Source: a bacterium GBS-1
GTDB lineage: Bacteria; Synergistota; GBS-1
Assembly: GCA_001443005.1 (NCBI GenBank)
Contig: LEKQ01000016.1
Span: 10,788-74,787, forward strand
Direction of reading: 5' to 3'
DNA length: 64,000 bases
Positions 18,431-59,723 of the stretch are shown one piece after another; the first letter of the stretch is position 1; each line of letters begins with the position of its first letter. A program made the position numbers and the translations under genes. The notes beneath the pieces are model-generated. The model was given only the letters and a program-made list of their open reading frames with translations. It was not told where the DNA came from and did not search any database.

Positions 18431-19228
18431 TTAGAACTTAAGGTAGACGAAAGCCTCCGGGTTAATCACCCTAAAGGTAAAGGTCTCAACTATAAAGAGC
18501 TTGACCTTGGAGCCCTCTTGAGCCTCATATCCTATAGATAGGTCCTGTCCCAGTATCAGCTCGAAATCCTTTCCCCTTTCAGATATTACTATCGCGTCAT
18601 CTATCCTCGGCGTGGGTATTATCTTACCATCCTCGAGAATATCTTCTATCTTTTCATACAACGGATAGGCCTTGCTTTCCTTGACGAGCTTAACCCACTT
18701 ATCGATATTTATAACTAGGGTGTAAGGTCCATTGATACCATGGGTTTTGAAGTTAGATAGAGCCTTAAAGAGGCTTTCTATGAAGTCTTCCTCGTTAAGG
18801 GAGGATTTAACCTCTCTTGAATCTTTATAGGCTAAGATACCTTTTATTCCCGATCTTTCGCACCCTTCAAATATAGCGCCATCTTCAAAGGCGGCCATAT
18901 TTCTTACCGCCTCTTCTAACGCTGATAGATCTACAGCTGGGTGTCCTCTCTCTATCTTATCGAGCTCCTTTAGATCAAGGTAGAAGTAGGTCTTCGCTTC
19001 AACCAAGGGTAATGCTTTCCTGAGCCCGAATATAACCGATTCCCCCTCCTTCGAGAGTATCTCAACCTCACCTGCAGGATGAGCAGCGTAATCCCAACCG
19101 AATGGGCCGACGACATCAACGACTAATCTTCCGAAAAGCTGTGTGGAGAAAACTTCCTTCGCTCTTTCATCTATCTCCTTCCACTGATTGGGAGTCAGAG
19201 GGGATATCGATCTTCTTAATATATCCAT
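18431..19228 (-). CDS. Family-1 encapsulin shell protein (HK97 fold, linocin M18-like)
   Basis: 265 aa. It aligns along its whole length with my recollection of the Thermotoga maritima encapsulin (..LRRS..PLT..QW.EID.RA.E.F..QL.GR..VDV.GP.GW.YAAHP.GEVE...GPYTLVIN.D.W...IITTPRI.DA.V.SERG.DF.LILGQDLSIGYE....V.LFI.ETFTF.V.NPEA...LKF). Confidence 0.9.
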   Translation of the reverse strand: MDILRRSISPLTPNQWKEIDERAKEVFSTQLFGRLVVDVVGPFGWDYAAHPAGEVEILSKEGESVIFGLRKALPLVEAKTYFYLDLKELDKIERGHPAVDLSALEEAVRNMAAFEDGAIFEGCERSGIKGILAYKDSREVKSSLNEEDFIESLFKALSNFKTHGINGPYTLVINIDKWVKLVKESKAYPLYEKIEDILEDGKIIPTPRIDDAIVISERGKDFELILGQDLSIGYEAQEGSKVKLFIVETFTFRVINPEAFVYLKF

Positions 19229-22779: not shown

Positions 22780-23229
22780 TTGGGTGAGGATATCGCGGAG
22801 AAGGCTTTTTCTGTGGCAGAGGTAGAGGAAGGGAAGCTCGCCTGATATCGGAGCGGGAACCGGCTTTATCAAAAAGAGCTGATTCGCAGGAGGTTGAAAG
22901 TGATTGCTGTTGATTATGTTTTCGCTAATATGTGTTTGCATAAAAAGGGAATGGGGAGGATACTTAAGCCAAGGGGAAAGCTGGTTATTAAAGATTTGGA
23001 TGAGCATCACGATCGCTGGATGGGTTTTAAGAGGGAAGATATAAGAAAGTGGTTTAAAGAGATGGGGATTAAAGAGATAGGCGTAGGTTGTGCAGGTGAA
23101 AACTGCTGTGCTCAATCTTGTGGTGGGGGAGAATATGCTAGCGTTAGTATATTTATATTCATCGCGTTGGGGCAGAAGCGATGTTTTTATCAAATTTTTC
23201 ATGGGCTTTTGAAAAAGCTATTGATATAA
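22780..23229 (+). pseudogene. Decayed class-I SAM-dependent methyltransferase (two frameshifts plus an internal deletion)
   Basis: Motif I DIGAGTG is encoded at 22844-22864 in a frame closed by stops on both sides. The flanking pieces (..EEGKLA*, ELIRRRLKVIAVD) are in other frames. Only the C-terminal part (YVFANMCLH..ILKPRGKLVIKD) remains as an ORF (22894-23229). Confidence 0.6.
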
Positions 23230-23277
23230 ACTGAGAAATTGCTTATAATATGGGAAAAAGCTTGGGAGGTGAGGGGT

Positions 23278-23579: not shown

Positions 23580-23610
23580 GGGAAGGCTGGGGATCCTGGC
23601 CTTCCCTTTT
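23580..23610 (+). terminator. Intrinsic terminator after hup
   Basis: GGGAAGGC-(11 nt)-GCCTTCCC followed by TTTT. Confidence 0.65.
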
Positions 23611-23619
23611 ATAATTATC

Positions 23620-24342
23620 ATGAAGGTCTTTTTTGCTTTTCTTTTGCTTATTGTCCTTTATAGAGGCTGGAAGAAGGGAATAGTTCAAGGGTTTTTAAGA
23701 TCGATAAGGCTTTCTTCCATTTTCCTTTGGCTTTTAGTGAGCATTACTTTAGTTTTCCTTGATTCCTATTTTACCTTTAGCAGGGCACAGGGAGGGCTAA
23801 GGTATATCTCGAAGTTCGGTAATATAGTTGGGGATGCTGATATTGTACTTCCTATTTTGATTTCTATAGTTTTACTCTTCATCTTTTTTCGCTCTGAAAG
23901 TCGGGAGGAGTTATTCATAGAGCTTGTTTGCGTTATTACCTTAACCACTCTTTTAGGGGATGTCTTCAAGGTCCTCGTGGGTAGGGCGCGTCCCTATATG
24001 GGAATGGGTGTTTTTTCCTTTTTTAACCTTTCTCACTCCTTATTCAGCAACGATTTTCAGAGCTTTCCTTCAGGACATGTCCTTTTCTTTTCTTCATTAT
24101 GCACTTGGTTTGCCTTTAGGCTCGGGTGGTGGTTCAGGTTTATCCTTCCTCTGCTTCCTATAGTTGTGGCTTATAATAGATTGGAGAGTAATAATCACTA
24201 CTTTTCGGATGTTTTCTTCTCCTGGGTTTTGGGGTATGTTATTATAGCAAGATATATGAAGGAGGTGAGAGGGACTGAAGAGGGGCCTCTGGCTAGTAGC
24301 GCTTGTGTTATTCTGTCTTTCATCAGGCGTTTACTCCCTTGA
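23620..24342 (+). CDS. PAP2-family membrane phosphatase
   Basis: Polytopic protein with the three PAP2 motifs: KVLVGRARP, PSGH, SNNHYFSDV. Confidence 0.8.
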   Translation: MKVFFAFLLLIVLYRGWKKGIVQGFLRSIRLSSIFLWLLVSITLVFLDSYFTFSRAQGGLRYISKFGNIVGDADIVLPILISIVLLFIFFRSESREELFIELVCVITLTTLLGDVFKVLVGRARPYMGMGVFSFFNLSHSLFSNDFQSFPSGHVLFFSSLCTWFAFRLGWWFRFILPLLPIVVAYNRLESNNHYFSDVFFSWVLGYVIIARYMKEVRGTEEGPLASSACVILSFIRRLLP

Positions 24343-24856
24343 TAAGGGGAGGATATATGATGGAGTTTTAACCTACGCTAAGGAGATCCTTGAGATCTCC
24401 ACCCTTTCTGAGAGGGCGAAGAGGGGATTTTATGAGGGCGTTGAAAGGGGCTTGAGGGATGCGATTAACTTCATTGAGGGGTTAAGCGTTGAGGAAGACC
24501 TTATAATAGATAATCTTAAAGAGATAGTGAAGTCTTCTCTCTTGTGGAGGTTTTCCGGGGAGGGTGTACGAGCCTTTATCGGAGGTTTTGGTAGACTAAT
24601 ATGTCTGGGTTTTAGCGTTGACGGCTCAGGTAAGATAGTGAAGAGGTTTATAGTAAGAGAGGTTAGCGCTTCTCACCTTAAGAAGATCCTTGAGCTCAGC
24701 GGTATACTTATAAACAGGTATGGCTTTCAGGCTTCATCGATAGAGTCATTCCTTCTGGAAAAGCTTTCTATGTTGGAAGAGAAAAGCAAAAGCGAGCTCG
24801 TTAAGTCTATAGTGGATCATTTAAGGGGGAAGATTCAAGAGGCGAAGAAAAAATGA
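24305..24856 (+). CDS. Hypothetical protein
   Basis: The ORF is co-directional and overlaps both neighbours. No motif recognised. Start uncertain: a hydrophobic LWLVALVLFCL segment lies upstream of the GTG in the same frame. Confidence 0.4.
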   Translation: MLFCLSSGVYSLDKGRIYDGVLTYAKEILEISTLSERAKRGFYEGVERGLRDAINFIEGLSVEEDLIIDNLKEIVKSSLLWRFSGEGVRAFIGGFGRLICLGFSVDGSGKIVKRFIVREVSASHLKKILELSGILINRYGFQASSIESFLLEKLSMLEEKSKSELVKSIVDHLRGKIQEAKKK

Positions 24857-25581
24857 ATGGTTATACTTTAGACGTCTTTTTGAGGGGTAGATTAAAGCTT
24901 TATCAACCTAAGGAGGGACCGCGCTTCGGTGTTGAGGCCCTTTTGCTTACTGATTTTCTGACCCTCAGACCTAAGGATAGGGTTATAGAGTTAGGGACAG
25001 GAACGGGAATAGCTCTCCTTCTTTTAGCTCTTAAGGTTCCGGTGATGAAGTTCTTCGGGCTTGAACTACAGAAGGAGCTTGTGGAGATAGCCAGAAAGAA
25101 CGTTGAGATAAACGGCTTTGATGATAGAATAGAGATAGTTGAGGGGGATTTAAGGAAGATAGAGGAGACGTTTTCTCCTGGTTCCTTTACTGTTGTTTTA
25201 GGTAATCCTCCCTATATACCATTGGAGGCAGGGAGAATCCCTTCGGATAGAGTGAGGGCCCTGGCTTACACGGAGGAGGGTTGTACCCTTGAGGAGTTCC
25301 TGAAGGCTTCGAGATATCTTCTTTCCACAGGTGGTAGGCTTTATCTAATATACAGGCCCTTTAGGCTACCCGATCTCATCTTCCATATGAGGAGATTGAA
25401 ACTGGAACCTAAGGAGATCAGGTTCGTTCACTCTAAGGCGAGTGAAGATGCGGAGTTCGTGCTGGTCAAGGGCGTTAGAGATGGCTCTCCCTCACTTAGG
25501 GTTGCTTCCCCCCTCGTTCTTTACAATGAGGATGGTAGCTACAGCGATGAGCTTAAAAGAATATACATGGGTGAAGTTTGA
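24853..25581 (+). CDS. N6-adenine class-I SAM methyltransferase (tRNA1(Val) m6A37 YfiC/TrmN6-like)
   Basis: ELGTGTG SAM motif, GNPPY catalytic motif, length about 240 aa. Confidence 0.65.
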   Translation: MNGYTLDVFLRGRLKLYQPKEGPRFGVEALLLTDFLTLRPKDRVIELGTGTGIALLLLALKVPVMKFFGLELQKELVEIARKNVEINGFDDRIEIVEGDLRKIEETFSPGSFTVVLGNPPYIPLEAGRIPSDRVRALAYTEEGCTLEEFLKASRYLLSTGGRLYLIYRPFRLPDLIFHMRRLKLEPKEIRFVHSKASEDAEFVLVKGVRDGSPSLRVASPLVLYNEDGSYSDELKRIYMGEV

Positions 25582-26411
25582 TGCCCCTTTATATCTGTCC
25601 TACTCCCATAGGAAACCTTGAGGATATCACCCTTAGAGTTTTGAGGATTTTAAAGGAATCTGATGTTATATTCGCTGAGGATACGAGAAGGGCTAGGATA
25701 CTCTTAAGCAAATACGATATAGAGAGTAAGAGACTTTATAGCTATAATAAGGATAATTGGAGAAAGAGGATACCTCTTCTTGAAAGTTTGCTCCTTGAGG
25801 GAAAGATCGTCTCTCTTATAAGCGATGCTGGAACCCCCGGTATATCTGATATGGGTGTTGAGGCAATAAGACTCTGTGTGGATAAGGATTTTAAGGTTGA
25901 GGTTCTGCCCGGACCAACAGCTTTCGTTCCCGCTCTTCTTCTTTCTACCTTTACCCCTCACCCTTTTCTCTTCTATGGCTTTCTTCCTTCTCAGCGAGGG
26001 AGAAGGAGAAAGGTCTTATCTTCCTTGAAGAGTCTTCCCTTCACTTTGGTGTTTTATGAAGCTCCTCATAGGATATCCGAGAGCTTGTGTGATATACTTG
26101 AAGTGTTAGGTGATAGGAGAGGGTGCTTGGTAAGGGAGATAAGCAAGGTTCATGAGGAGGCCTTAAGGGGAAAGATATCTGAGCTTCTTGAGAGGTCTAA
26201 GGATCTAAAGGGAGAGATGGTGTTAGTCATAGAGGGGTGCCTGAAAGAGCCTGAGGTGAAGGAGGATTCTTTAGAGGATAAAATACTTCTTTTGATGAAA
26301 GAAGGATTTTCTTCGAAGGAGATAGCTCAGGAGCTTCATGATAAATTTGGGTTGTCTAAAAAGGAGGTTTATAAAAAGGTTTTAGAGTTGAAAGGGAGGG
26401 GTGAGTTTTGA
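25578..26411 (+). CDS. rsmI: 16S rRNA (cytidine1402-2'-O)-methyltransferase RsmI
   Basis: LY.C.TPIGNLEDITLR.L..L...D.I.AEDTR, SDAG.PGISDPG-like and YEAPHR motifs of the tetrapyrrole-methylase-fold RsmI. Confidence 0.9.
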   Translation: MMPLYICPTPIGNLEDITLRVLRILKESDVIFAEDTRRARILLSKYDIESKRLYSYNKDNWRKRIPLLESLLLEGKIVSLISDAGTPGISDMGVEAIRLCVDKDFKVEVLPGPTAFVPALLLSTFTPHPFLFYGFLPSQRGRRRKVLSSLKSLPFTLVFYEAPHRISESLCDILEVLGDRRGCLVREISKVHEEALRGKISELLERSKDLKGEMVLVIEGCLKEPEVKEDSLEDKILLLMKEGFSSKEIAQELHDKFGLSKKEVYKKVLELKGRGEF

Positions 26412-28294
26412 AGAGCTTTTATATAACGACACCAATTTATTACGTTAATGATGTTCCTCATATAGGTCATGCTTATACGACGATAGCTGCTGATGTTATG
26501 GCTCGTTGGAAGAGGATGGAGGGGTATGATGTCCTCTTTTGCACTGGAACTGACGAGCATGGTCAGAAGATAAACAGGGCTGCTGAGAAACTTGGCCTTC
26601 ACCCTAAGGAGCTTGCAGATAGGGTGGTTGAGAACTTTAAAAGCCTTTGGGTCAAACTTAACATAAGCAACGATGACTTCATAAGGACCACTGAGGAACG
26701 CCATAAGAGGGTTGTTCAGGAAGCCTTTAAAAGGATGATAGAGTCAGGTGATATTTACAAAGGGGTTTACGAGGGTTGGTATTGCGTCTTTTGCGAAAGC
26801 TTCTGGAGCGAGTCCCAGCTTATTCCTGAGAGGAGATGCCCTGATTGCGGAAGAGAGGTTGAGATGGTCAGAGAGGAGACTTACTTCTTTAGGCTCTCTA
26901 AGTATCAGGATAGACTTCTTAAACACATGGAGGAGAACCCCGATTGCGTGAAGCCCGAGTCGCGCTTTAACGAGGTTTACAGTTTCATAAGAATGGGGTT
27001 AAAGGATATAAGCGTGACTAGAACCACGGTTAAATGGGGTATTCCCTTTCCCTTGGATCCCTCTCACGTCATTTATGTCTGGTTCGATGCGCTTATAAAT
27101 TACCTTACGGTTGCAGGCTTTACTCAAGATGAGGAGAAGTTCAACAAATACTGGCCTGTGGTTCATCACCTCGTTGGTAAAGATATATTGAGATTCCATG
27201 CGGTTATATGGCCTGCCATGCTTATGTCCCTTGGGGTTAACCCTCCTAAGATGGTCTTCGCTCACGGATGGTGGACCGTCGAGGGGGAGAAGATGTCTAA
27301 GTCCAAGGGCAATGTTGTGGATCCCAACGAGGTCGTCGATAAGTATGGGGTGGATGCCTTTAGGTATTTCCTTCTCAGGGAGGTTCCCTTTGGGCTTGAT
27401 GGGGACTTCTCCCGTGACGCCTTCATAAACAGGGTAAATGGGGAGCTAGCTGACAATTTTGGTAATCTTCTTAATAGGACCTTGGTCATGGTTGAAAAGT
27501 TCTTCGGTGGTGTGGTTCCTGAGCCTATGGAAGAGGAGGCGGTGGACAGGGAGATAGCTTCTTTAGCTTTGGAAACCTTTAGGAAAGCGAAGGAATACAT
27601 GGATGAGTTCGGCTTCGATAAAGCCCTTAGGGAGATCTTGGCCCTTTCATCGAGGCTGAACAAGTATGTGGATGAGACATCTCCTTGGGCTTTGGCTCGG
27701 GAGGGGAGGAAAGGGAGATTGTCAAGCGTAATATACACGGTCCTCGAGGGGCTCAGGTTCCTAACCGTTATGTTAACCCCCTTCATACCTAAAAGTGGAG
27801 AGAGAGCTTGGACGATGCTTGGTTTGGAGGGGAAGCCGGAGGATCACGGCTTTTCATCCTTGGTCTGGGGTAAGTTCCCTGTGGGTATAAGGGTTAAACC
27901 TGGAGAGGTTTTGTTCCCAAGGATAGAGGTTAAGACTGAGGTAAAAAGGGAGGAGATGAAGGTGGAGAGCTTCGTTAGCATCGATGAGTTTAGGAAGATG
28001 GATCTAAGGATAGCCAAGGTTCTTTCTGCGGAGAGGGTTCCGAAGACCGATAAACTTCTCAAGCTTGAAATAGACATAGGTGATGAAAGAAGGACCATAG
28101 TTGCTGGTATAGCTGAGGTATATTCTCCGGAGGAGCTCATAGGCAAGGAGGTTGTGGTCATCGCTAACCTTGAGCCTGCCAAGATAAAGGGTATAGTATC
28201 TCAAGGCATGCTTCTTGCTGCCATAGATAGGGATGGTAAGCCGGTTATACTGAGGCCGGAAAGAGATGTGGATCCAGGAAGCAAGGTGACTTAG
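26408..28294 (+). CDS. metG: Methionyl-tRNA synthetase with C-terminal tRNA-binding (Trbp111/EMAP-like) domain
   Basis: HIGH (PHIGHAY) and KMSKS motifs, zinc knuckle (CVFC...CPDCG), C-terminal LRIAKV......DKLLKLEIDIG. Confidence 0.95.
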   Translation: MKSFYITTPIYYVNDVPHIGHAYTTIAADVMARWKRMEGYDVLFCTGTDEHGQKINRAAEKLGLHPKELADRVVENFKSLWVKLNISNDDFIRTTEERHKRVVQEAFKRMIESGDIYKGVYEGWYCVFCESFWSESQLIPERRCPDCGREVEMVREETYFFRLSKYQDRLLKHMEENPDCVKPESRFNEVYSFIRMGLKDISVTRTTVKWGIPFPLDPSHVIYVWFDALINYLTVAGFTQDEEKFNKYWPVVHHLVGKDILRFHAVIWPAMLMSLGVNPPKMVFAHGWWTVEGEKMSKSKGNVVDPNEVVDKYGVDAFRYFLLREVPFGLDGDFSRDAFINRVNGELADNFGNLLNRTLVMVEKFFGGVVPEPMEEEAVDREIASLALETFRKAKEYMDEFGFDKALREILALSSRLNKYVDETSPWALAREGRKGRLSSVIYTVLEGLRFLTVMLTPFIPKSGERAWTMLGLEGKPEDHGFSSLVWGKFPVGIRVKPGEVLFPRIEVKTEVKREEMKVESFVSIDEFRKMDLRIAKVLSAERVPKTDKLLKLEIDIGDERRTIVAGIAEVYSPEELIGKEVVVIANLEPAKIKGIVSQGMLLAAIDRDGKPVILRPERDVDPGSKVT

Positions 28295-28298
28295 AGAT

Positions 28299-29075
28299 AT
28301 GAAGCTTTTTGATAGCCATTGTCACTTAAATATGAGGCATTTTAAGGACGATTGGAAAAGTACTTACGAGAGGGGTTTGAAGGCAGGGGTATATAGAATG
28401 GTTGTTGTGGGATGGGATATATCATCGAGCGAGAGGGCGCTTAAGATGACTGATGAAGCCGAGGGGGTCTACGCTGCTTGTGGCTTTCATCCTCACGATT
28501 CCAAGCTCTTTCGCGATGGAGACGACGTTAAGCTCAGGAAGCTTCTTTCCCATCCCAAAAGTGTGGCCTTGGGGGAGATAGGTTTGGATTATTATTATGA
28601 TAATTCGCCAAGGGATGTCCAGCTTAAGGTCTTTGAGGCTCAGCTTGCTCTGGCTAAGGAGATAGACAAACCCGTCGTTATACATGTGAGGGATGCTTAC
28701 GAAGAGGCTCTTTCGGTTGTTAGGAACGTGGGACTTCCTTCAAGCGGAGGGGTGTTGCACTGTTATACTGGCGGGACGAGCTTTATAGAGAAAGCCCTAT
28801 CTTTTGGATTTTACATATCCTTTTCCGGTATAATCACCTTTCCTAACGCCGATGACTTAAGAGAATCTGCCAAGATGGTTCCTAAAGAGAAGCTCCTTAT
28901 AGAGACAGACTCTCCTTACTTAGCTCCTAAGCCTCATAGGGGAAAGAGAAACGAACCATCTTATCTAATATATGTGTTAAGGGGATTAGCTAACGTGAGG
29001 GGTGAGGAAGAGGAAGAGCTTGCTCTTGTAACCTATGAAAATGCAAATAGGTTTTTCAGAATTAATTATTTGTGA
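28299..29075 (+). CDS. tatD: TatD-family metal-dependent hydrolase
   Basis: DSHCHL, GEIGLDYYY, VIHVRDA, LHCY, ETDSPYL motifs. Confidence 0.9.
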   Translation: MKLFDSHCHLNMRHFKDDWKSTYERGLKAGVYRMVVVGWDISSSERALKMTDEAEGVYAACGFHPHDSKLFRDGDDVKLRKLLSHPKSVALGEIGLDYYYDNSPRDVQLKVFEAQLALAKEIDKPVVIHVRDAYEEALSVVRNVGLPSSGGVLHCYTGGTSFIEKALSFGFYISFSGIITFPNADDLRESAKMVPKEKLLIETDSPYLAPKPHRGKRNEPSYLIYVLRGLANVRGEEEEELALVTYENANRFFRINYL

Positions 29076-29113
29076 TAAAATATTCTTATAAAGGTGGAAA
29101 GGAGGTAATTGTT

Positions 29114-29956
29114 GTGAAAAAACTTATCGGGTGGTTGGTGATATGTTTAGGCGTTGGGGTTATGGCCGTGGGAGCAATCGCTCAATCTTCTTATACACAG
29201 CCTTCTCAAGTTGGCGAGGTTGCAAAGGTTGTTGAGGAGACGGCTCACGGTTCGATTAACTGGACCGAGGATTATGTTGAGGCCTCTGGTTCTGCCGTTC
29301 CTCCTACTACTGCCGTTAATCCAGCGCAGGGGAAGCTCTTGGCCAAGAGGGGAGCTATCCTTGACCTTCAGAGGAACTTACTTGAGACCATAAAGGGTGT
29401 GAGGATTGATAGCCAAACCCTAATGGAGAACTTCATGGTCAAGAGCGATATAGTTAGGAGCGAGGTTGAGGGATGGGTAAAGGGAGTAGAGGTTGTAAGG
29501 GAGAAATGGGATGGCGAAATATACACCGTATGGGGAAGGATATATCTTAAGAAGGTCAGGAAGGTTGTCGCTGATACTTTAGGTATCCAACCTAAGGAAG
29601 TTACACCTCCACCTCCTAAGGCTAACTACACTGGACTTGTACTTGATGCAAGAGACGTTCCTTTGATTCCTGCTACAACCTTTAGGATACTCGATCCCAA
29701 TGGGAAGGAAGTCTACTCTATAAATCACGTTGACAGGGAGAGGTTTATGGCTAGTGGAATGGCTGCCTATCAGACAAACATAAACTGGGCAACTGGAGAC
29801 CCAAGGGTTGGAACCAGGCCTTTGGTCGCGAAGGCTATTAAGACGGTTTCCCCCAATAACGTTGACGTTGTAATATCCCAGAAAGAAGCTGATGCTATAA
29901 GGAATAATAACTATGATTTTAGGCCCGCGTGTAGGGTGATAGTCGTTAAGCGGTGA
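29114..29956 (+). CDS. Secreted protein P1: LPP20/FlgP-like domain plus uncharacterised C-terminal domain
   Basis: GTG at 29114 after GGAAAGGAGG. Signal-like helix LIGWLVICLGVGVMAVGAIA. The motifs GSINWTEDYV, AQGKLLAKRGAILDLQRNLL and DGEIYTV are shared with P3. A PPPP linker precedes the YTGLVLDARD...domain. Confidence 0.6.
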   Translation: MKKLIGWLVICLGVGVMAVGAIAQSSYTQPSQVGEVAKVVEETAHGSINWTEDYVEASGSAVPPTTAVNPAQGKLLAKRGAILDLQRNLLETIKGVRIDSQTLMENFMVKSDIVRSEVEGWVKGVEVVREKWDGEIYTVWGRIYLKKVRKVVADTLGIQPKEVTPPPPKANYTGLVLDARDVPLIPATTFRILDPNGKEVYSINHVDRERFMASGMAAYQTNINWATGDPRVGTRPLVAKAIKTVSPNNVDVVISQKEADAIRNNNYDFRPACRVIVVKR

Positions 29957-29959
29957 TCC

Positions 29960-31111
29960 TTGATGAGGCTTACTTTTAATTTTTCCCTTCTATTTCTTTT
30001 TATTCTTTTAATATCTTTTCCTGTTATAGGCCTTGAAAAGGGTGAAACGACCGTTGAGGTTGAGGGAGCTGGAGCTATTATCGGCGGAGATAAGGAAAGG
30101 GCCTTTGAGGAGGCTAAGAGGGATGCCTTTAGGAACGCTATAGAGCAGGGGTTGGGGGTCTTGATTCAGGGTATAACCGAGATGGAGAACTTCCAAGTTA
30201 TAAGGGATAAAGTTATGGCTCAGTCAAAGGGGCTTATAACCGGTTACAAGGTGCTTAGTAGATGGGAAGAGGATGGCATAGTTAAGGTTAAGATAAGGGC
30301 CACCGTCGCCCTAAGTAAGCTAAACGATGTCTTAGGGCCGGTGGTCATCGATACCCTTGGTAACCCAGTTTTGATGGTTTGCGTTGCTGAAAGCATCGAT
30401 GGTAAGACGCCCTTTATCTCTGTCAGCGAATCCACCATATTGAGCGTCTTTCAGAATGCTGGCTATCATGTAGTTAATCCCAGTCAGATAGATGCTAATA
30501 GGCGCAGGGAGGCTACAGAGGCGAGCCTCACCGGTGACAAATCCAAGCTCATAGAGCTGGCGAAGAGGCACGATGCGGATGTTGTTATTTCGGGCAAAGC
30601 TATGGCTGTTCCTTACACTTCGCAGGTGGTTTCAGGCCAGAAGCTTTATGGCGTTCAGGCTCAACTTAGCATAGAGGCTATAATAACGCAGACGGGGAAA
30701 GTGCTTGGGGTTGCTATACCGTCAGTTAGGAAGGTAGGCTTAAGCGTGGAGGATGCTGCTATGAAGGGGCTCAAGGAGGCTGCCGATGAGGCTGCGAGGA
30801 AGCTAGTTTATGAGGTTGCCTATGCGATGCTGGGGCAAACGGGCAAGGGTATAGCTGGAAGGACGATTCAGGTTAGGATAGAGGGGTTAAACTTCACTCA
30901 GGCGAGGAAGATAAAGGGAGAGATGGAGAAGTTTAAGGGGGTTGTCGGGGTATACCAGAGGAGCTTTGTTGACGGTAATTTGGTTGTGGACGTTAACATT
31001 GAGGGTAACGCTGAGGACTTAGCGGTCAGACTTGAGGAGCTTGGCCTTGAGGTCGTAAACTTTACCGCAAACAACATAGTTTGTCGGTTTAAAGGAGGAG
31101 GAGGGAATTGA
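29960..31111 (+). CDS. Secreted protein P2: three-module FlgT-like protein
   Basis: Signal peptide (FSLLFLFILLISFPVIG). N-module EVEGAGA...AFEEAKRDAFRNAIEQG..., middle alpha/beta module (VLMVCVAE...NAGYHVV), C-terminal module also present in P5. Length (383 aa) and module order resemble Vibrio FlgT. Confidence 0.5.
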   Translation: MMRLTFNFSLLFLFILLISFPVIGLEKGETTVEVEGAGAIIGGDKERAFEEAKRDAFRNAIEQGLGVLIQGITEMENFQVIRDKVMAQSKGLITGYKVLSRWEEDGIVKVKIRATVALSKLNDVLGPVVIDTLGNPVLMVCVAESIDGKTPFISVSESTILSVFQNAGYHVVNPSQIDANRRREATEASLTGDKSKLIELAKRHDADVVISGKAMAVPYTSQVVSGQKLYGVQAQLSIEAIITQTGKVLGVAIPSVRKVGLSVEDAAMKGLKEAADEAARKLVYEVAYAMLGQTGKGIAGRTIQVRIEGLNFTQARKIKGEMEKFKGVVGVYQRSFVDGNLVVDVNIEGNAEDLAVRLEELGLEVVNFTANNIVCRFKGGGGN

Positions 31112-31548
31112 AGTTTGGAGTTTCCCTTTTCCTGATTTTGACCTTTTCCCTACCAGTTTTTGCGATTCCCTATAATGTAGATCTTTCCCTTCTTAGGAAA
31201 TTTAACGAAGATAATCTTGCTCTCCAGGGTTTCCCCTGGGGGAGCATAAACTGGGAGGAGAATGTCGTTATAGTTAAGGGCATAGGTAGGGTTCCTGAAA
31301 GCTACGAGAGTGAGGCTCAGGCCAGGCTTCTTGCAAGAAGGGGTGCTATCTTAGTCGCTCAGAGAAACGCCTTATTTTTACTTTATCAGCTAAACTATCC
31401 TCTTCCCAAGAACTATAACACGGTTAAGATAAAGGGAGTTGTCGGGGGAGGTTATATAGTTGAGGAGAGCTTTGATGGTAAGGTTTATACGGTGGTTTTG
31501 AAGATACCCTTGAAGGAGTTGTTAGAGTATAGTGTGGAGATTCAGTAA
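31108..31548 (+). CDS. Secreted protein P3: small LPP20/FlgP-like protein
   Basis: Signal peptide MKFGVSLFLILTFSLPVFA. GSINWEENVV, AQARLLARRGAILVAQRNAL and DGKVYTV are paralogous to P1. It overlaps P2 by 4 nt and follows the RBS GGAGGAGGAGGG. Confidence 0.6.
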   Translation: MKFGVSLFLILTFSLPVFAIPYNVDLSLLRKFNEDNLALQGFPWGSINWEENVVIVKGIGRVPESYESEAQARLLARRGAILVAQRNALFLLYQLNYPLPKNYNTVKIKGVVGGGYIVEESFDGKVYTVVLKIPLKELLEYSVEIQ

Positions 31549-31570
31549 AGGAGGGTTGTTTTAAGATAAC

Positions 31571-32953
31571 ATGAGAAGGGTGATTTGGGGTTTGGTTTTG
31601 GTTTTCGGGTTTTTAAGTTTGAGCTCTGTGGTTTTTGGAGCTTCCGATAAGATGAGGGTTGCCGTTATAGATTTCAGCAATAACGTGACTGGACCGGAGA
31701 GTGAGCAGGTTGAGGCCGTTAGAAGGGCTATAACCGATATGTTCATTACTGAGCTATGGAAGACGCAGATGTTCTCGATAGTGGAAAGAAGCCGCCTTGA
31801 AGCCATAGCCAGGGAGCATAGGTTAGCGCAGGCGGGTTTAGTTGATGCGACGACGGCGGCTCAGTTGGGTAAACTTCTTGGTGTGGAGGCTATTATAACC
31901 GGTAGCATAACCCAGTTCACGCTGAAGAAGAGAGGTGGTTTTATACCCATTCCTCAGCTGGGTGGAATAGCCGTTGGAGAAACGGAGGCCTTTGTTACGC
32001 TAGACGTTAGGATCGTTAACGTTGAGACAGGCGAGATAATACTTGTGGCTAAGGAGACTGGTCAAGCTACCCATAGCATGGGTGGGGTTGCCTTTGGAGG
32101 ACTCATAGCCGGTCAGGGAGAAGCGGAAGGGATCTTGGCGGCTGCTACTCGTCAGTGTGTAGAAAAGCTCGTTAAGAAGATCGGGGCTATTAGGGCGCGG
32201 GGAGGCAAGATGGTATATCACGTTATAAGAAGTGAGAGAGGTAGGGTTTACATAGATGCCGGAGAAGCGAACGCTGGTGTAACGCCGGGGAACTATTTCG
32301 CAGTCTACGTCGAAGGGGAGCCCATCTATGGTGTTAAAGGTGAGCTCTTAGGGGTTGAGAAGAACTACATAGCTGTTCTTGAGGTTGAGGAGGTTTATCC
32401 CCAGTACTCTATAGCCAGCGTAGTTAAGGGTAAGGGAGTGATGAGAGGGGATAAGGTCGAGCCTTTGTTTGATCCTTCTGCTGTCGAAAAGATAAATATA
32501 AGGCCGAGGATACTTGCTGAGGGGGCATCTGGGTCGCCTTCCCAAGGGCAGCCCGGTGAAACTCCGCCTCCACCACCTTCAGCTGGAGGGCAAACTCCAC
32601 CACCTCCTCCACCTCCACCAGCGCCTCAAAGCGTTTCAATACTTAACACCGGAACTACGGTTGAAGTTATAGAGCTTTGGCCTATAAGCTCTGATCTGAA
32701 GAATAACCTGATAAGGCTTCACAAGGCTGGGTATTATAACTATTCGAAGAAGAATTACTCTCTTGCTATTCAGAACTATAAGCTTGCCTTCGAATCCTAT
32801 AATGGTAATTACGTTGCCTGCTACTGGTTAGGAAGGATTTACTATGAAATGGGCAGGAGAAAGGAAGCTATAGAATGGTGGCGAAAGGGATTAAGCATCA
32901 ATCCTAACTATGAGCCCGTTAAGAACAAGCTTAAGGAGGTTGGAGCCCTTTGA
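31571..32953 (+). CDS. Secreted protein P4: CsgG/LpoB-like domain, beta-rich domain, polyproline linker and C-terminal TPR
   Basis: Signal peptide. MRVAVIDFSNN...TDMFITEL.....FSIVERSRLEAIAREHRLAQAGLVD...LGKLLGVEAIITGSITQF (CsgG-fold signature). GRVYIDAGEANGV.PGNYF.VY beta domain. PPPPPSAGGQTPPPPPPPPAP linker. TPR-like YNY..KNY..AI..Y..A......Y.ACYWLGRIYYEMGRRKEAIEWW.KGL..NPNY. Confidence 0.6.
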   Translation: MRRVIWGLVLVFGFLSLSSVVFGASDKMRVAVIDFSNNVTGPESEQVEAVRRAITDMFITELWKTQMFSIVERSRLEAIAREHRLAQAGLVDATTAAQLGKLLGVEAIITGSITQFTLKKRGGFIPIPQLGGIAVGETEAFVTLDVRIVNVETGEIILVAKETGQATHSMGGVAFGGLIAGQGEAEGILAAATRQCVEKLVKKIGAIRARGGKMVYHVIRSERGRVYIDAGEANAGVTPGNYFAVYVEGEPIYGVKGELLGVEKNYIAVLEVEEVYPQYSIASVVKGKGVMRGDKVEPLFDPSAVEKINIRPRILAEGASGSPSQGQPGETPPPPPSAGGQTPPPPPPPPAPQSVSILNTGTTVEVIELWPISSDLKNNLIRLHKAGYYNYSKKNYSLAIQNYKLAFESYNGNYVACYWLGRIYYEMGRRKEAIEWWRKGLSINPNYEPVKNKLKEVGAL

Positions 32954-33708
32954 TTAGGAAGATCTTAGTTTTGTTGGTTTTGCTTTGTGCGCTAACTGGT
33001 ATAGCCCTGGCTTACTTGCCCAGCGATGGAAGGGTTGTCGTGATCCTGGATAACCATCTTGCAGAGTCTAAGATAATGGAGGCGCTAATAAGCTCGGGGT
33101 ACAATGTAGTTGAAAGGGAGGAGTTGGAGAAGATAAAGAAAAGCCAGGCAGCCATTTTAGCCCTTCAGGGAAATGCAGAAGCCATAATGAAGCTTGGGAA
33201 TGCCTATAGAATAGCTTACTTCGTTAGGGGTAAGAGTCAGTTTGAGGAGCCAAGGTTAAATGAGTTTAACCTTTATACGGCTACGGCATCCCTTTCTATT
33301 CAAGCCTATAGGACTAAGGATGCGCGCTTCCTATTAAGTCAGGTCTTTTCGGCGAAGGCAGTTGGCTATACCGGGGAAGAAGCACAAAGGAAGGCTTTAA
33401 TTGAGGCAGCATCTAAGGCTGCTACCTTTCTTATAGGTGCCCAGCATCCGAGCGAGGTTTCAGGACCTGCTAGAGCTATCCTGAGAGGGGTGTCCGATTA
33501 CGGAATAGTTAATAGCGTTTACGAGAAAATACGTGGTTTTCCTGGAAGCAGGAACGTTAAGGTTGTTTCCTACGGCGGAGGGCAAGCGATTATAGAGTTT
33601 CTCTACTCGGGGGATTTAAATAGCTTGGCTCAAAGCCTTAAAACTGCTGGTTTACCTATAGAGGTCGTTTCGGTTCAGGGAAGGGTGATACATATCAATT
33701 GCTATTGA
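32950..33708 (+). CDS. Secreted protein P5: paralog of the middle and C-terminal modules of P2
   Basis: Signal-like helix ILVLLVLLCALTGIALA. The SSGYNVVEREELEKIK module and the C-terminal VKVVSYGGGQAIIEFLYSGDLNSLAQSLKTAGLPIEVVSVQGRVIHI parallel P2 VGVYQRSFVDGNLVVDVNIEGNAEDLAVRLEELGLEVVNFTANNIVCRF. It overlaps P4 by 4 nt. Confidence 0.5.
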   Translation: MIRKILVLLVLLCALTGIALAYLPSDGRVVVILDNHLAESKIMEALISSGYNVVEREELEKIKKSQAAILALQGNAEAIMKLGNAYRIAYFVRGKSQFEEPRLNEFNLYTATASLSIQAYRTKDARFLLSQVFSAKAVGYTGEEAQRKALIEAASKAATFLIGAQHPSEVSGPARAILRGVSDYGIVNSVYEKIRGFPGSRNVKVVSYGGGQAIIEFLYSGDLNSLAQSLKTAGLPIEVVSVQGRVIHINCY

Positions 33709-33714
33709 ATAAGA

Positions 33715-33792
33715 TGGTCGGGGCAACCGGACTTGAACCGGTGACCTCCTGCTCCCGAAGCAGGCGCGCTAACCAGTCTGCGCTATGCCCCG
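33715..33792 (-). tRNA. tRNA-Pro (anticodon CGG), CCA encoded
   Basis: The minus strand folds as a cloverleaf: acceptor CGGGGCA/TGCCCCG, D-stem GCGC/GCGC, anticodon stem CCTGC/GCAGG with loop TTCGGGA, T-stem ACCGG/CCGGT with loop TTCAAGT, then A-CCA. Confidence 0.9.
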
Positions 33793-33810: not shown

Positions 33811-34680
33811 TCATCTACCGTTTTCTTTGGTCAAGCTTATGAGCTTTTCCTCTATGCTAAGAAGTCTCTCTATAGCATTCTTGAGGTTGCTTACGCTTTC
33901 CTGAAGGCTTTGAGATAGCGAAGCGTAATTCTCTACGGTTTCCTTGACCCTTTCAATCGGTTCCTTCAAGGTGGTTATGCTTCCTTTAAGGTGGTTTAAG
34001 GTGCTCGCTATCTCTCCCGCTGAGCTTGAGCTCTGGTCGGCAAGCTTGCTTACCTCGCTTGCTACGACTGCGAAGCCCTTGCCTAACTCTCCCGCTCGCG
34101 CAGCTTCGATGGAAGCGTTAAGCCCTATCATCTTGGTCTGCTTAGCTATCCCTTGGATAGATTTAATAATGTCGTTCACCTTCTCCGCTTCGCCTATGAG
34201 CTCCTCTATCTTATCGGTGAGGGATAGAGTTAACTTCTTTACTTGATCCGTTCCCTTATATAACGTTTCTGAGAGCTTGGTTAATGTGGGTAAGGCTTCC
34301 TCTATCTTGACCTTGGTATCTCCAAGCTCCTTTATCTGTTCCAATAGAACCGACTTCTCCCTCTCCTCGTACTCTATTATATCCCAGATAAACTTAGCAT
34401 CCTTGGCCTTAAGGAGGCTCGCGTGAGGTGGCTTTTTCCTTTCAAGCTCATTTGCTACCTCCTCTCTTCCCGTTACCTCTATTATCAGATCAAAAGAGCG
34501 AGACAGAAGTTCATCGATCTTCGTCGTAGTGAATATACCATATTTTTTAGCTTCAAGTATAGCTGGGGCATCGGGTCTTACGTCCATTATACCTGATATA
34601 GGTATGTTTAGTTTCTTAAACTGCTTTAGCAGGCTCAAAGCACCCCTTCCGCCGCCAACCAAAACAACACCCCTATACAT
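33811..34680 (-). CDS. Soluble methyl-accepting chemotaxis protein with N-terminal Rossmann-like domain
   Basis: No TM segment. N-terminus [14 protein letters not shown] (GxGxxA-type dinucleotide-fold start). C-terminus has the MCP hairpin-tip signature [37 protein letters not shown]. Confidence 0.75.
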
Positions 34681-51305: not shown

Positions 51306-52340
51306 TTAGCCACCGTTGATATTGGGAGCTTTGTCTTGCTCTAAGAGTTTAAGCAAGCTTTGGGGGTATCTCATAGATTCGATGGGATAGGAGATGTTCG
51401 CTATATGAATATTCTTCGTTAATCCCAGCTCAACTAAAGGAGCTAGGTAGTTAGCTCCTCCGAATACTACTATGAGCCCTCTGTTTTTTTCCCATATAGA
51501 GAAGCGGAATCTGTTAGGGATCGTGTAGCTGTGGTAAATCGGTTTTCTAAAAGGCGTGTTTTCTAGAAGATCTACTGTTTTTATAACCTTTTCGTATAGG
51601 ATTGACGGAAAGGTTTTGATGGCTGCGGTTACGTGTCCTATTCCTGTTGATATGTAAGAGCTGACAGATGTGTATCCTCCACGAATGAAGAGCTCTCCTG
51701 GGCTTATGGTGGTTCCGGTGTGTATCATGATCTCAGAGAAGCCTCGAACCTTTTCCTCTTCTATGAAAAGTATGCCTGTAGCTGTGCTTTCTATGGGTAT
51801 TCCTCTTTTTTGGAATATGAGGTCGTAATTTCTAGAACTTGGAACGATTAAGGCAACCTCATCCTCTTGAATGAAGATGGTCTTTAACTTTTTCGGTCCT
51901 GGTTCTATCGCTATAAGTGGAGAGAATATGATTTGCCTTTGGCTTAACTTAATCATTATCTCCAAGCTTTCCCTAAGCTGTTCTCTTTTTATGATTAAGG
52001 TGTTTGCGACTATAGAGCCAGTGTTTTTATCTATGTCATAGCTAGATTCCCAAAAAGCTTTTTCTCCTTCTATAGCCATTTCTCCAAGCCTTTCCGGAAG
52101 AAGCATTATTTTAGCTTCTTCAAGCCCTTTTTTCGTGAGCATAACTCCTCTTTTACCTAAGCGTTTTACTAATCCCTTCTTTTCCATATTTAACAGGTGA
52201 TACCTTATTGTGCGGGAATCTACATTAAGCCCCACTTTGCGAAGTCTCTCCTGCAGGTAGAGAGATGTTACAGGTGTCTCTTGGAAGTAGAGATTCTTAA
52301 CTATTTCTAAAAGGGTTGAGGGATGCTCCTCCAGCTCCAT
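51306..52340 (-). CDS. NrpR-like regulator (winged HTH plus one NrpR/DUF128 domain)
   Basis: wHTH LLEIVKN....PVTS..LQERL...GLNVDSRTIRYHLLNMEKKGLV.RLGKRGVMLTKKGLEE followed by a ~230-aa domain. The likely start is the ATG at 52340 after GGGGGTGA; the ORF track extends to 52454. A canonical NrpR operator lies in the adjacent divergent promoter. Confidence 0.6.
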   Translation of the reverse strand: MELEEHPSTLLEIVKNLYFQETPVTSLYLQERLRKVGLNVDSRTIRYHLLNMEKKGLVKRLGKRGVMLTKKGLEEAKIMLLPERLGEMAIEGEKAFWESSYDIDKNTGSIVANTLIIKREQLRESLEIMIKLSQRQIIFSPLIAIEPGPKKLKTIFIQEDEVALIVPSSRNYDLIFQKRGIPIESTATGILFIEEEKVRGFSEIMIHTGTTISPGELFIRGGYTSVSSYISTGIGHVTAAIKTFPSILYEKVIKTVDLLENTPFRKPIYHSYTIPNRFRFSIWEKNRGLIVVFGGANYLAPLVELGLTKNIHIANISYPIESMRYPQSLLKLLEQDKAPNINGG

Positions 52341-52464
52341 ATTTACTATCACCCCCATTAACTTTATAACCCCTAAAAAGATCATTTTAGGGAAGCGGCT
52401 ATCCAAGAGTTTTGGAAGAGTTCTCTTATCATAAATTTTATCATTGTTTTTCAAGTTACCATAC

Positions 52465-53927: not shown

Positions 53928-55343
53928 GTGATCTGGGAATTGGAAAGCGTAAAGGATACGCTTCTCCTTAGGCTTTCGGGGTTTTATTCCAGTTTGGACT
54001 TAGATAGCATTCCTCAAGAAGTGATAGAAAGGGCTAAGGAGCGTCTTATAGATTTTTTGGGTGTATTGGCTGTGGGGTTTAAGAGAGGAGAGGTTGCCTC
54101 CTATGTGAATAAATATGTGCTGAGTTTAGGGGGAAAAGAGGAATCTACCATTCTTTGCTTGAACAGGAAGGTCCCAGCTATTCATGCGGCTTTAGCTATG
54201 GGGGCTATGGCGCATTCAGTGGAGCTTGACGATGGGCATAGATGGGGCACATCGCACCCTGGGGTAGCGATAATACCATCTGTTTTAGCTTTCGGTGAGA
54301 GAGAAGGTAGTGATTTCAAGAGGATGCTTGGAGCCATAGTTGTGGGGTACGATCTCATGCTAAGGGTTGCAAGAGCCATAAACCCATCCCATTTAAGAAG
54401 GGGCTTTCATTCAACGGGTACCTGTGGAGCCTTGGGATCTGCAGCAGCATGCGCGTTCCTTAAGGGCTTCGATGCATTGAGAACCGCCTACTCTGTATCT
54501 ATAGGTGGCTTGCAGAGCGCAGGAATACAGGAGATGCTTCATGACAATCCGTCTATAAAGGTTCTCCAAGCTGGTCATGCTGCTATGGCTGGTGTTTTAG
54601 CAGCTGATCTCGTTGCTCTAGGAGCTAGAGGCCCTAGAACGCTCTTTGAAGGAAAGCATGGTTGGCTCAAGGCCATGTGTAATGGAGAGTATGACGAGAG
54701 AGCTTTAATAGGTGATCTGGGCAAGCGATGGGAGATAAACTTCGCTTATACAAAGCTGTATCCCACTTGTAGGCATTGTCATGCTTCTATAGATTTGGCG
54801 ATAGAAGCTAAGGATACCCTGGGAATACAAAGCCTTAAAGAGGTTAAGGAGGTCTTGATCCGAACATATTCTGTGGGCATAGCTGAGGTCGGCAATATAG
54901 CTTGTCCGAGCTCCTTTGAGGAAGCTCTTTTTAGCCTGCCCTTCTCCGTTTCCGTGGCTCTCATGAAGGGGAATGTAACCCTAGAGGATTACTCTGAGGA
55001 GTCGCTTAGAGATGAGGAACTTAAGGTTTTTGCTAGGGATAGGGTTAAGATTGAGTCTGATCCCGATATGGATAAGTTGTATCCGGAGGAGCGAGGTGCC
55101 TATATGAGAGTATTAACCAGTGATGGAAGGGTGTTTGAGAGAAAGGTTTCTATTCCTCTAGGAGAACCGGAAAGACCTGTGGATCGCGATCGGCTCTACA
55201 AGAAGCTTTCCTCCATACTTGAACCTTACTATCCTGAAAGCTTTCTGAAGGAATTATGGCGTGTGATCATGGAAAGGAGACCTGAGGAATCCTCTTTCGA
55301 GGATATAAAGGAGGTTTATAGGAGGTATTGTGAAAATGGTTAG
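53928..55343 (+). CDS. MmgE/PrpD-family protein, paralog 1
   Basis: N-terminus L..F...L.LDSIPQEVIERAKERLIDFLGV...G, H.VELDDGHRWGTSHPG, C-terminal alpha/beta domain, 471 aa. Confidence 0.8.
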   Translation: MIWELESVKDTLLLRLSGFYSSLDLDSIPQEVIERAKERLIDFLGVLAVGFKRGEVASYVNKYVLSLGGKEESTILCLNRKVPAIHAALAMGAMAHSVELDDGHRWGTSHPGVAIIPSVLAFGEREGSDFKRMLGAIVVGYDLMLRVARAINPSHLRRGFHSTGTCGALGSAAACAFLKGFDALRTAYSVSIGGLQSAGIQEMLHDNPSIKVLQAGHAAMAGVLAADLVALGARGPRTLFEGKHGWLKAMCNGEYDERALIGDLGKRWEINFAYTKLYPTCRHCHASIDLAIEAKDTLGIQSLKEVKEVLIRTYSVGIAEVGNIACPSSFEEALFSLPFSVSVALMKGNVTLEDYSEESLRDEELKVFARDRVKIESDPDMDKLYPEERGAYMRVLTSDGRVFERKVSIPLGEPERPVDRDRLYKKLSSILEPYYPESFLKELWRVIMERRPEESSFEDIKEVYRRYCENG

Positions 55344-55668
55344 AAAATATAAGAACATATGTGAGTTAGCTAGGACTATAAGAAGTAAAAACGCAGGTTC
55401 GTTTGTGATAACGCTGGAGATAATTTTCGATGACAGAGATATATACGAAAAGGTAAAGAAAAGCGGTGTGATAACCAGGGAGAAGATAGCGGAGCTTTAT
55501 GGCGTTGAGCCCGATAAGATTATAGACTTTATGTTTTTCGACCCTGGGATGGGGATAAAGGCGAACTTCAGAAGAGCGTCCCCGAGCGGAGGACCAGGCG
55601 AAACCGATGTGTATGGTTGCCAGCAATATGCGCCTCTTTTCAATATAGATATACCGTGGGATGAGTGA
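55330..55668 (+). CDS. DUF4387 (AtuA C-terminal-like) small protein
   Basis: 112 aa. ...IRSKNAGSFVITLEIIFDD...Y..V..SGVIT...IAELYGV....I....FFDP..GIK......SG..GE.D.YG.QQ..PL. Start at GTG 55330 or ATG 55336, overlapping the stop of PrpD paralog 1. Confidence 0.55.
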   Translation: MKMVRKYKNICELARTIRSKNAGSFVITLEIIFDDRDIYEKVKKSGVITREKIAELYGVEPDKIIDFMFFDPGMGIKANFRRASPSGGPGETDVYGCQQYAPLFNIDIPWDE

Positions 55669-55671
55669 GCC

Positions 55672-57033: not shown

Positions 57034-57038
57034 GGGGG

Positions 57039-59707: not shown

Positions 59708-59723
59708 GACAGGGGGTGTAAAA

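Follow-up and report, generated by a model that had tools for sequence, protein, structure and literature searches.

A conserved five-gene operon of exported LPP20/FlgP-, FlgT- and CsgG-like proteins in Synergistota, encoded outside flagellar and curli loci

The DNA analysed here, referred to as the window, is a 64,000-nt stretch of contig LEKQ01000016.1 from the Synergistota bacterium GBS-1. Between positions 29114 and 33708 it carries five genes, designated P1 to P5, whose products are predicted to be exported proteins with domains of the FlgP/LPP20, FlgT and CsgG types. In the list of open reading frames (ORFs), P1 lies at 29114..29956 (280 aa), P2 at 29960..31111 (383 aa, starting at TTG 29960 or alternatively at ATG 29963), P3 at 31108..31548 (146 aa, TTG start), P4 at 31571..32953 (460 aa) and P5 at 32950..33708 (252 aa, TTG start), all on the + strand. 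An initial annotation made from the sequence had described five co-directional genes with junctions of +3, -4, +22 and -4 nt, in exact agreement with this list. Stop and start codons overlap as TTGA at the P2/P3 and P4/P5 junctions, and the TTG start of P3 is preceded by GGAGGAGGAGGG and that of P5 by AAGGAGG. Together with a GGAGGG site upstream of P4 and an AGGAGG located 8 nt upstream of GTG 29114, Shine-Dalgarno sites were seen ahead of P1, P3, P4 and P5. A longer ORF for P1 runs from GTG 29072, and an otherwise identical database protein (P0001, 294 aa) is called from that codon, overlapping the tatD stop. GTG 29114 is favoured as the start because of its Shine-Dalgarno site, and the resulting 280 aa is the length of four close homologues (P0002-P0005). 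P1 to P5 constitute a single operon. The novelty lies in a conserved multi-gene system consisting only of these folds and located outside flagellar and curli loci; the domain families themselves have been described before, and a crystal structure exists for the P1 unit.

At the N-terminus of each of P1 to P5, one or two K/R residues precede a hydrophobic segment, whose mean Kyte-Doolittle value over 12 residues is 2.4-3.3, and an AXA-like site follows. When residues 1-45 were searched with a relaxed lipobox pattern, no match was obtained in P1 to P5, and beyond the signal-like helix none of them has a hydrophobic 19-mer of the kind expected for a membrane helix. The claim that every product begins with a signal-like helix and has no lipobox cysteine therefore agrees with this rule-based check, which predicts that P1 to P5 are exported by the Sec pathway and are not lipidated. 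Among the relatives, a lipobox was found in 5 of 120 P1-family proteins and in 1 of 66 P4-family proteins.

P1 is predicted to consist of a signal peptide (about residues 1-23), an SHS2 domain of the FlgP/LPP20 type with a beta-hairpin insert (about residues 44-150, nt 29243-29563), a short Pro-rich linker and a domain resembling D2 of Treponema pallidum Tp0624 (about residues 171-280, nt 29624-29953). P3 has a signal peptide and a single LPP20/FlgP-type SHS2 domain. Neither protein matched any Pfam or NCBIfam model, and profile searches of PDB sequences were needed to place them. The best sequence match of both families is FlgP of the Campylobacter jejuni basal disc (9HMF chain C). P1 itself matches FlgP (9hmf_C) at 5e-9, the P1 family profile (A1) at 4.5e-18 and the P3 family profile (A7) at 1e-10, and the LPP20 family (PF02169) is reached by 5 of 15 P1-family members. 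Residues 48-139 of P1 align to FlgP 63-154 over 92 residues without a gap, hairpin included. In FlgP this beta-hairpin insert builds the continuous sheet of the rings, as seen in an in-situ motor study (PMC12222027), and P1 thus appears from the alignment to keep the ring-forming hairpin. The N-domain of P2 aligns to the same FlgP-hairpin stretch of P1; P3 shows a 9-residue gap relative to P1 in the hairpin region (BLASTP). FlgP is a single-domain lipoprotein, whereas P1 has two domains and is predicted not to be lipidated.

The C-terminal domain of P1 is homologous to D2 of Tp0624 (5JIR): positions 165-281 of profile A1 match residues 132-262 of 5jir_B at 2.4e-12. D2 was described as a new fold of orthogonally packed beta-sheets and was found only together with D1, which is a four-stranded sheet with a long diagonal helix (PMC5104382). 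No sequence match to D1 was obtained from the P1 family; judged by its published description, D1 may fit an SHS2 fold. Pairs of D1 and D2 without the OmpA-like D3 occur in about 50 other bacterial proteins and were regarded as one functional unit whose role is not known (PMC5104382). P1 likewise lacks D3, and Tp0624 is not known from a five-gene operon of this kind.

P2 would be, on the evidence of its AlphaFold (AF2) model, a full-length FlgT-like protein. Behind an N-terminal signal peptide the model (predicted local distance difference test score, pLDDT, 82) has an SHS2 N-domain (residues 29-133), a CsgG/FlgT-M-like alpha/beta domain (residues 137-293) with a long hairpin at 208-242, and a C-terminal beta-alpha-beta-beta-alpha-beta-beta module (residues 301-377) that is modelled as alpha/beta. 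In a Foldseek search with this model FlgT was at the top (8z5n_0, 5.9e-11; 3w1e, 1.4e-10; 381-388 columns, TM about 0.3), followed by GNA1162, the CsgG pre-pore, HpaA, PelC, LpoB and LptE. At the sequence level the P2 profile matches FlgP at 5e-6, and the Pfam FlgT_N match of P2 (2.3e-5, 25.3 bits) lies below the cutoff of 28.8. The NCBIfam model for Leptospira LipL46 covers residues 26-334 of P2 (4.3e-11), which is most of the model; P2 was rejected as a LipL46 equivalog (NF033164), since it scores 42.1 bits against a cutoff of 400, and LipL46, in contrast to P2, is a lipoprotein. From this alignment LipL46, to which no structural role is assigned, would itself seem to belong with the FlgT-like envelope proteins.

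P5 has a signal peptide (residues 1-21), an alpha/beta domain (residues 25-165) homologous to the middle domains of P2 and P4, and a C-terminal module of about 75 aa in common with P2. Members of its family give weak Pfam matches to CsgG, LptE and LpoB. As the P5 family profile found nothing significant among PDB sequences, the fold is placed only by hhalign comparison with P2 and P4. The P5 and P2 families align at 99.7% probability (E 2.9e-25) over 231 columns including the C-terminal module, so that P5 corresponds to residues 134-376 of P2, that is, to P2 minus its N-domain. BLASTP detects the middle module of the two proteins at E 2e-11, and the two comparisons together uphold the earlier statement that P2 and P5 share an alpha/beta and a C-terminal module. 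The paralogy claimed for P1 and P3 is equally evident (BLASTP E 6e-15) and takes in the motifs GSINW, LLA[KR]RGAIL..QRN and DG.(I/V)YTV. More distant relationships were found by hhalign between the N-domains of P1 and P2 (98.3%, E 1.2e-14) and, at the level of families, between the P5 core and the CsgG-like domain of P4 (95.7%, E 8.8e-9); no relation was seen between the D2 domain of P1 and the beta domain of P4. From these alignments the operon can be described as one fold used three times (P1, P2 and P3) and another used three times (P2, P4 and P5), with four accessory pieces added.

P4 has the most elaborate predicted architecture, with a signal peptide (residues 1-23), a CsgG/FlgT-M-like domain (residues 25-210, nt 31643-32200), a FlgT-C-like beta domain (residues 215-300, nt 32213-32470), a disordered polyproline linker (residues 301-372, nt 32471-32686) that includes the stretch PGETPPPPPSAGGQTPPPPPPPPAPQ, and about two and a half TPR repeats (residues 373-456). 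Residues 25-202 match the Pfam CsgG family (PF03783) at 1.4e-34, with 119.7 bits against a cutoff of 20.8; other Pfam matches were to TPR_2 (7.7e-9), LpoB (4e-5) and FlgT_C (0.005). In the AF2 model (pLDDT 77) the alpha/beta domain carries a long hairpin (residues 107-150). Foldseek ranked FlgT first (3w1e, 2.5e-14, 293 columns covering the M and C domains) and the CsgG pre-pore next (5e-8). Pfam and the model are thus in accord with the first description of P4 as a CsgG/LpoB-type protein with a beta domain, a polyproline linker and TPR repeats. The wider comparison with CsgG stands in part: P4 does carry the Pfam CsgG domain, but the architecture of P4, like that of P2, resembles FlgT more than it resembles the CsgG channel.

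The CsgG match raises the possibility that P4, perhaps with P2 and P5, forms an outer-membrane ring of the CsgG/HfaB or PelC kind that exports or anchors an extracellular polymer, with the SHS2 proteins as accessory components. The likeness to CsgG (4UV3) extends to the hairpin at 107-150, which has the length of CsgG TM1, and to the tips of the two P4 hairpins, which are Gly-rich and hydrophobic and may leave some room for membrane contact. In CsgG, two transmembrane beta-hairpins from every subunit make up a 36-strand barrel. The second hairpin region of P4, however, falls 7-10 residues short of its counterpart in CsgG and in the CsgG-like relatives of other phyla, and it is modelled with pLDDT below 50. 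The constriction loop of CsgG carries Y51, N55 and F56. In a phmmer alignment P42-E-S-E-Q46 of P4 stands opposite P52-A-S-N55-F56 of CsgG, so that N55 and F56 face E45 and Q46, and the preceding part of the loop is unaligned. P4 also has a beta domain, polyproline linker and TPR repeats that are additional to CsgG, and it lacks a lipid anchor as judged by the lipobox check. The surroundings of the cluster were screened by a Pfam sweep of 38 ORFs of at least 150 aa outside 23.6-40.2 kb and of two genes just downstream of the cluster, and the other neighbours within 23.6-40.2 kb were identified from their translations. No csgE, csgF, csgA or csgB gene was found in the Pfam sweeps of window ORFs of at least 150 aa, a limit that lies at or above the size of the Csg proteins (about 130-150 aa) and left shorter ORFs unscreened, and none occurs among the conserved neighbours of the cluster described below. 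Since P4 has the CsgG domain but neither a lipobox nor the constriction residues, and no csg partners were found, it was not classed as a CsgG curli channel, and the assembly is probably not a curli-type channel.

Other systems of this fold resemble the operon in certain respects. Foldseek also finds PelC and GNA1162, and the proteobacterial CsgG/HfaB-GNA1162 (DUF799) clusters are, like the system described here, widespread and little studied; they have been linked to the matrix, and in Acinetobacter baumannii a three-gene cluster of this CsgG/GNA1162 type affects pili and poly-N-acetylglucosamine (PNAG). The proteins of such clusters are lipoproteins, with no SHS2/LPP20 members among them, whereas the Synergistota operon has no member of the DUF4810 or GNA1162 families by Pfam. 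Distant relatives adjoin beta-helix, Fn3 and RmlD genes, which would suit the export or anchoring of a polymer; against this, the scans of the window and of the conserved neighbourhoods revealed no gene for a substrate, a synthase or a porin. We consider an export ring improbable.

The conservation of the operon was examined in several ways. The P1 homologues found in a large protein collection were mainly from Synergistota metagenome-assembled genomes (MAGs). A scan of genomes, one per species, used a P1 profile from a closer set (A2), so that its matches are biased towards Synergistota; it yielded 59 loci, nearly all of them from this phylum. In the closest, from an unclassified 'bacterium' MAG (L007, 83% identity), the order metG-tatD-P1…P5-MCP is kept. 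Because metG-tatD is upstream in this locus only, the five genes appear to travel as a unit of their own. Three arrangements were distinguished by tblastn: P1-P2-P3-P4-P5 (L007, L008, L009, L012, L013, L021, L024 and L029), P1-P2-P3-P5 … P4-like … small CsgG, and P1-P2-(P3)-P5-P4short-P4long(-P1short). Many clusters end in a short P1 paralogue with the SHS2 domain only, and some genomes carry the cluster twice or have additional P1-like genes standing alone (L018, 10001-20723; L013 and L055, on the same Aminiphilus contig). When the ORFs of 68 fetched 20-kb loci and a 25-kb slice of the window, nearly all Synergistota, were clustered without supervision, the five most widespread families were P4 (46 sources), P1 (46), P2 (42), P5 (31) and P3 (22). 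A family of small CsgG/LpoB proteins ties with P3 at 22 sources, and the families next in frequency are lineage-specific transporters or proteins without Pfam matches. No flagellar family was present among the recurrent neighbours scanned in these loci. The named carriers of the cluster are Dethiosulfovibrio, Aminivibrio, Aminiphilus, Fretibacterium and Thermovirgaceae. Cultured organisms with a P1 homologue include Dethiosulfovibrio peptidovorans DSM 11002 (WP_005660387.1), D. salsuginis and D. faecalis, in which the protein is annotated as hypothetical, 'LPP20 lipoprotein' or 'FlgT C-terminal domain-containing'. The initial annotation had named three findings that would speak against it, concerning synteny in other genomes, family assignment and export signals, and none of them was obtained: synteny of P1 to P5 is seen in dozens of Synergistota genomes, profile and structure searches lead to FlgP/LPP20, FlgT, CsgG-like and TPR families and to no unrelated characterised family, and the N-termini resemble Sec signals that have no lipobox.

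The P1 family reaches far beyond this phylum. An HMMER search of 1.84 billion representative proteins gave 1,566 matches at E ≤ 1e-30 and 4,441 at E ≤ 1e-10, and at 50% identity the family has more than 1,500 representatives. More than 466 relatives were found when metagenomes were scanned with a P1-like profile from outside Synergistota. Eighty of these loci were kept and combined with three other non-Synergistota loci for neighbour clustering. Near the P1-like genes of these 83 loci, genes were found for a TPR-SLH protein (51 loci), a GNA1162-like/beta-helix protein (37), a FecR-domain protein (24), a TPR-Amidase_3 protein (15) and a TPR-CsgG protein of about 670 aa (9), and P2-like genes lie within the same arrays. 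A typical array reads [P2-like][TPR-CsgG ~670 aa][Fn3 ~760 aa][GNA1162-like + beta-helix ~920 aa][TPR-Amidase_3][TPR-SLH][LPP20-D2][TPR-SLH][FecR]. This larger array, often beside mutL-miaA, was present in eight metagenome contigs (L083, L087, L097, L099, L101, L105, L112 and L115) and seems to be a separate envelope system, as yet uncharacterised. In Megamonas, P2-like, CsgG-like and LPP20-D2 genes lie on one strand, and in Treponema the P1-type D2 domain is fused to an OmpA-like domain in Tp0624. Since the combination of P1-like, P2-like and CsgG-TPR proteins occurs in other phyla, it must be much older than Synergistota. In Synergistota the operon represents an envelope module of LPP20-D2, FlgT-like and CsgG-TPR proteins that is widespread and uncharacterised.

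Literature searches found no paper that describes the operon or the wider triad, whose members carry 'hypothetical' or domain labels in databases, and a paper on the Veillonella outer-membrane proteome does not mention these families. The word 'undescribed' that was first applied to the cluster thus holds for the operon but goes too far for its parts, as the two-domain unit of P1 has been crystallised as Tp0624 D1-D2 and belongs to a large family.

Several other gene contexts were seen in the course of these searches. P1-like genes stand beside CHASE2 sensors in L066 and L067; on a Nitrospirales contig a P1-like gene stands beside CHASE2 and Ser/Thr kinase genes. On a Scalinduaceae contig (L068, 3123-14625) a FlgT_N protein is encoded beside CsgG/DUF4384, two caspase-like peptidases (C14), CHAT-TPR and FGE-sulfatase proteins. 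Stand-alone proteins with CsgG and FlgT_C domains on Acidobacteria-like contigs lie in housekeeping contexts that give no functional clue.

The recurrence of TPR-amidase, FecR and CHASE2 sensor genes beside P1-like genes in other lineages would suit a non-structural function, in which the proteins regulate cell-wall enzymes from the periplasm or serve as their adaptors, much as LpoB activates PBP1B, or else sense envelope stress. Residues 52-116 of P4 do pass the Pfam LpoB cutoff (24.0 bits against 22.3), but this match lies beneath the far stronger CsgG match. As LpoB itself, a lipoprotein whose N-terminal linker is long and disordered, P4 was rejected, with 22.5 bits against a cutoff of 110 for TIGR02722 and no lipobox. 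No synthase, hydrolase or sensor gene is conserved beside the Synergistota operon, and five paralogous products with ring-forming homologues suit a stoichiometric structure better. A regulatory role is in our view very unlikely.

A close parallel is the H-ring of the Vibrio flagellar motor, formed by FlgT, FlgP and FlgO (PDB 3W1E, 8Z5N and 9YDS). P2 resembles FlgT over its full length and P4 resembles FlgT-M and FlgT-C; FlgP-type SHS2 domains occur in P1, P2 and P3; and both systems comprise several small exported proteins of the two folds. However, sequence identity is only 11-13%, P1 to P5 are predicted to lack lipid anchors, and no flagellar, motX/motY, flgH/I or flgO/P gene is located in the 64-kb window or among the recurrent neighbours. 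The cluster further adds the Tp0624-D2 domain and a polyproline-TPR arm, and in P2 and P5 a C-terminal alpha/beta module replaces the FlgT-C fold.

On this combined evidence the reading that we favour, with real reserve, is that the operon encodes a stand-alone, peptidoglycan-linked oligomeric scaffold close to the outer membrane. P1 to P5 would co-assemble in the periplasm into an oligomeric ring or lattice near that membrane. The beta-hairpins of the SHS2 domains in P1, P2 and P3 would zip neighbouring subunits into continuous sheets, as in flagellar discs, and the FlgT-M/CsgG/LpoB-type domains of P2, P4 and P5 would form rings, as they do in FlgT, CsgG and PelC. The known rings comprise 26 subunits for FlgT and 58 for FlgP and FlgO beneath the outer membrane, nine for CsgG and twelve for PelC; the rings of FlgP are concentric and form through its hairpin. 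P1 would contribute the Tp0624-D2 domain, and the polyproline segment of P4, a rigid rod of about 60 residues, would present the TPR platform to a partner elsewhere in the envelope. The whole would brace or organise the zone between outer membrane and peptidoglycan on its own; a role in this zone is suggested because LPP20-D2 relatives are fused or adjacent to OmpA-like domains, SLH domains and a cell-wall amidase. The analysis itself establishes gene structure, signal-like N-termini, domain homologies and synteny; co-assembly, ring or lattice geometry, location and role are all inferred from such homologies and gene contexts.

The main alternative is that the proteins form a Synergistota flagellar outer disc, a counterpart of the Vibrio H-ring or the Campylobacter FlgP disc that is encoded away from the other flagellar genes. 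The best matches of P1 to P4 are the FlgP and FlgT of in-situ motor structures, with the FlgP ring-forming hairpin seemingly kept in P1, and a preprint infers an ancient origin for flgO and flgP, with enrichment among the diderms of both superclades. Several observations that favour a disc also weigh against a free-standing scaffold. Every characterised FlgP and FlgT assembly is, to our knowledge, flagellar. The named Synergistota carrier genera are regarded as motile. The only motility-related gene of the window, which encodes a soluble MCP-signal protein of 289 aa (33811-34680, - strand; PF00015, 3.5e-28) with no membrane segments noted, adjoins the cluster both here and in L007 (70% identity), and weaker MCP matches lie within 5 kb of the cluster in L040, L047 and L062. 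Three further points tell against the scaffold in more general ways: the formation of a ring or lattice is deduced from homology; the Synergistota cluster proteins have no peptidoglycan-binding domain, so that the link to peptidoglycan comes from distant relatives; and the choice between a cleaved signal peptide and an inner-membrane signal anchor was judged by simple rules only.

The distribution and context of the genes argue in the other direction. The initial annotation had noted no flagellar, curli or secretion gene within 64 kb, and the Pfam sweep and the translations found none. This absence does not exclude a flagellar role; flgP-flgQ are encoded apart from other flagellar genes in Campylobacter. 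The lack of flagellar genes extends, however, to the recurrent neighbours of the Synergistota loci; in the window the cluster belongs to a tight co-directional run with rsmI-metG-tatD, and some genomes have duplicate clusters. The related modules of other lineages adjoin SLH, amidase and FecR genes, and one of them is found in Megamonas, of which M. hypermegale is described as non-motile (PMC12442376). P1 to P5 are also predicted not to be lipidated, unlike FlgP and FlgO. Taking both sides together, we regard a flagellar disc as unlikely, if a serious competitor.

A broader form of the scaffold reading is possible but doubtful. In it the proteins would form a stand-alone, non-flagellar periplasmic ring or disc beneath the outer membrane, as one form of an ancient module that is widespread in diderms; the outer flagellar discs (the FlgP basal disc and the FlgT/FlgP/FlgO H-ring) would have been co-opted from that module, and the structure may serve as an additional brace between outer membrane and peptidoglycan where Lpp and Pal are lacking. 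Gene neighbourhood in other phyla ties the system to peptidoglycan-binding and cell-wall proteins. If the structure is free-standing, it would show the source from which flagellar accessory discs were recruited, and the envelopes of Synergistota and other deep-branching diderms, which are poorly understood, would gain a component. If it proves to be flagellar, the operon would supply the first parts list for the outer disc of the Synergistota motor.

In the window the cluster closes a compact run of ten co-directional genes (23620-33708, + strand) with tiny gaps or overlaps, in the order PAP2-like, unknown, methyltransferase, rsmI-like, metG, tatD and P1-P5, as identified from translations. 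A strong terminator-like hairpin (23580-23606) lies just before the run, a promoter-like site matching at 11 of 12 positions (23221-23249) lies upstream of it, and another promoter-like site (29053-29081) lies within the end of tatD. As the counts from the promoter and terminator scan were not above the shuffled expectation, these sites are weak hints only. The operon may be read through from the upstream rsmI-metG-tatD housekeeping genes. Its downstream boundary is marked by a convergent tRNA-Pro(CGG) gene (33715-33792, - strand), 6 nt past the P5 stop.

The remainder of the window is mostly metabolic and housekeeping in character. Around the cluster, translations indicate rsmI-, metG-, tatD-, metH- and uxaC-like genes; the swept genes include priA, der, a two-component pair, TRAP and phosphate transporters, cobalamin genes and an encapsulin, as well as hexuronate, feoB, lipid synthesis, MmgE/PrpD and aconitase genes. 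The encapsulin shell protein (Linocin_M18, 5e-81) is encoded at 18431-19228 (- strand). From 53928 to 60224 (+ strand) an AtuA-like gene is followed by three tandem paralogues of the MmgE/PrpD family and then by the genes for the large and small subunits of aconitase. An NrpR-type regulator (NRD1_2 domains, 1e-46) is encoded at 51306-52454 (- strand); it is an unusual neighbour for a bacterial window, as the NrpR family is best known from nitrogen control in archaea.

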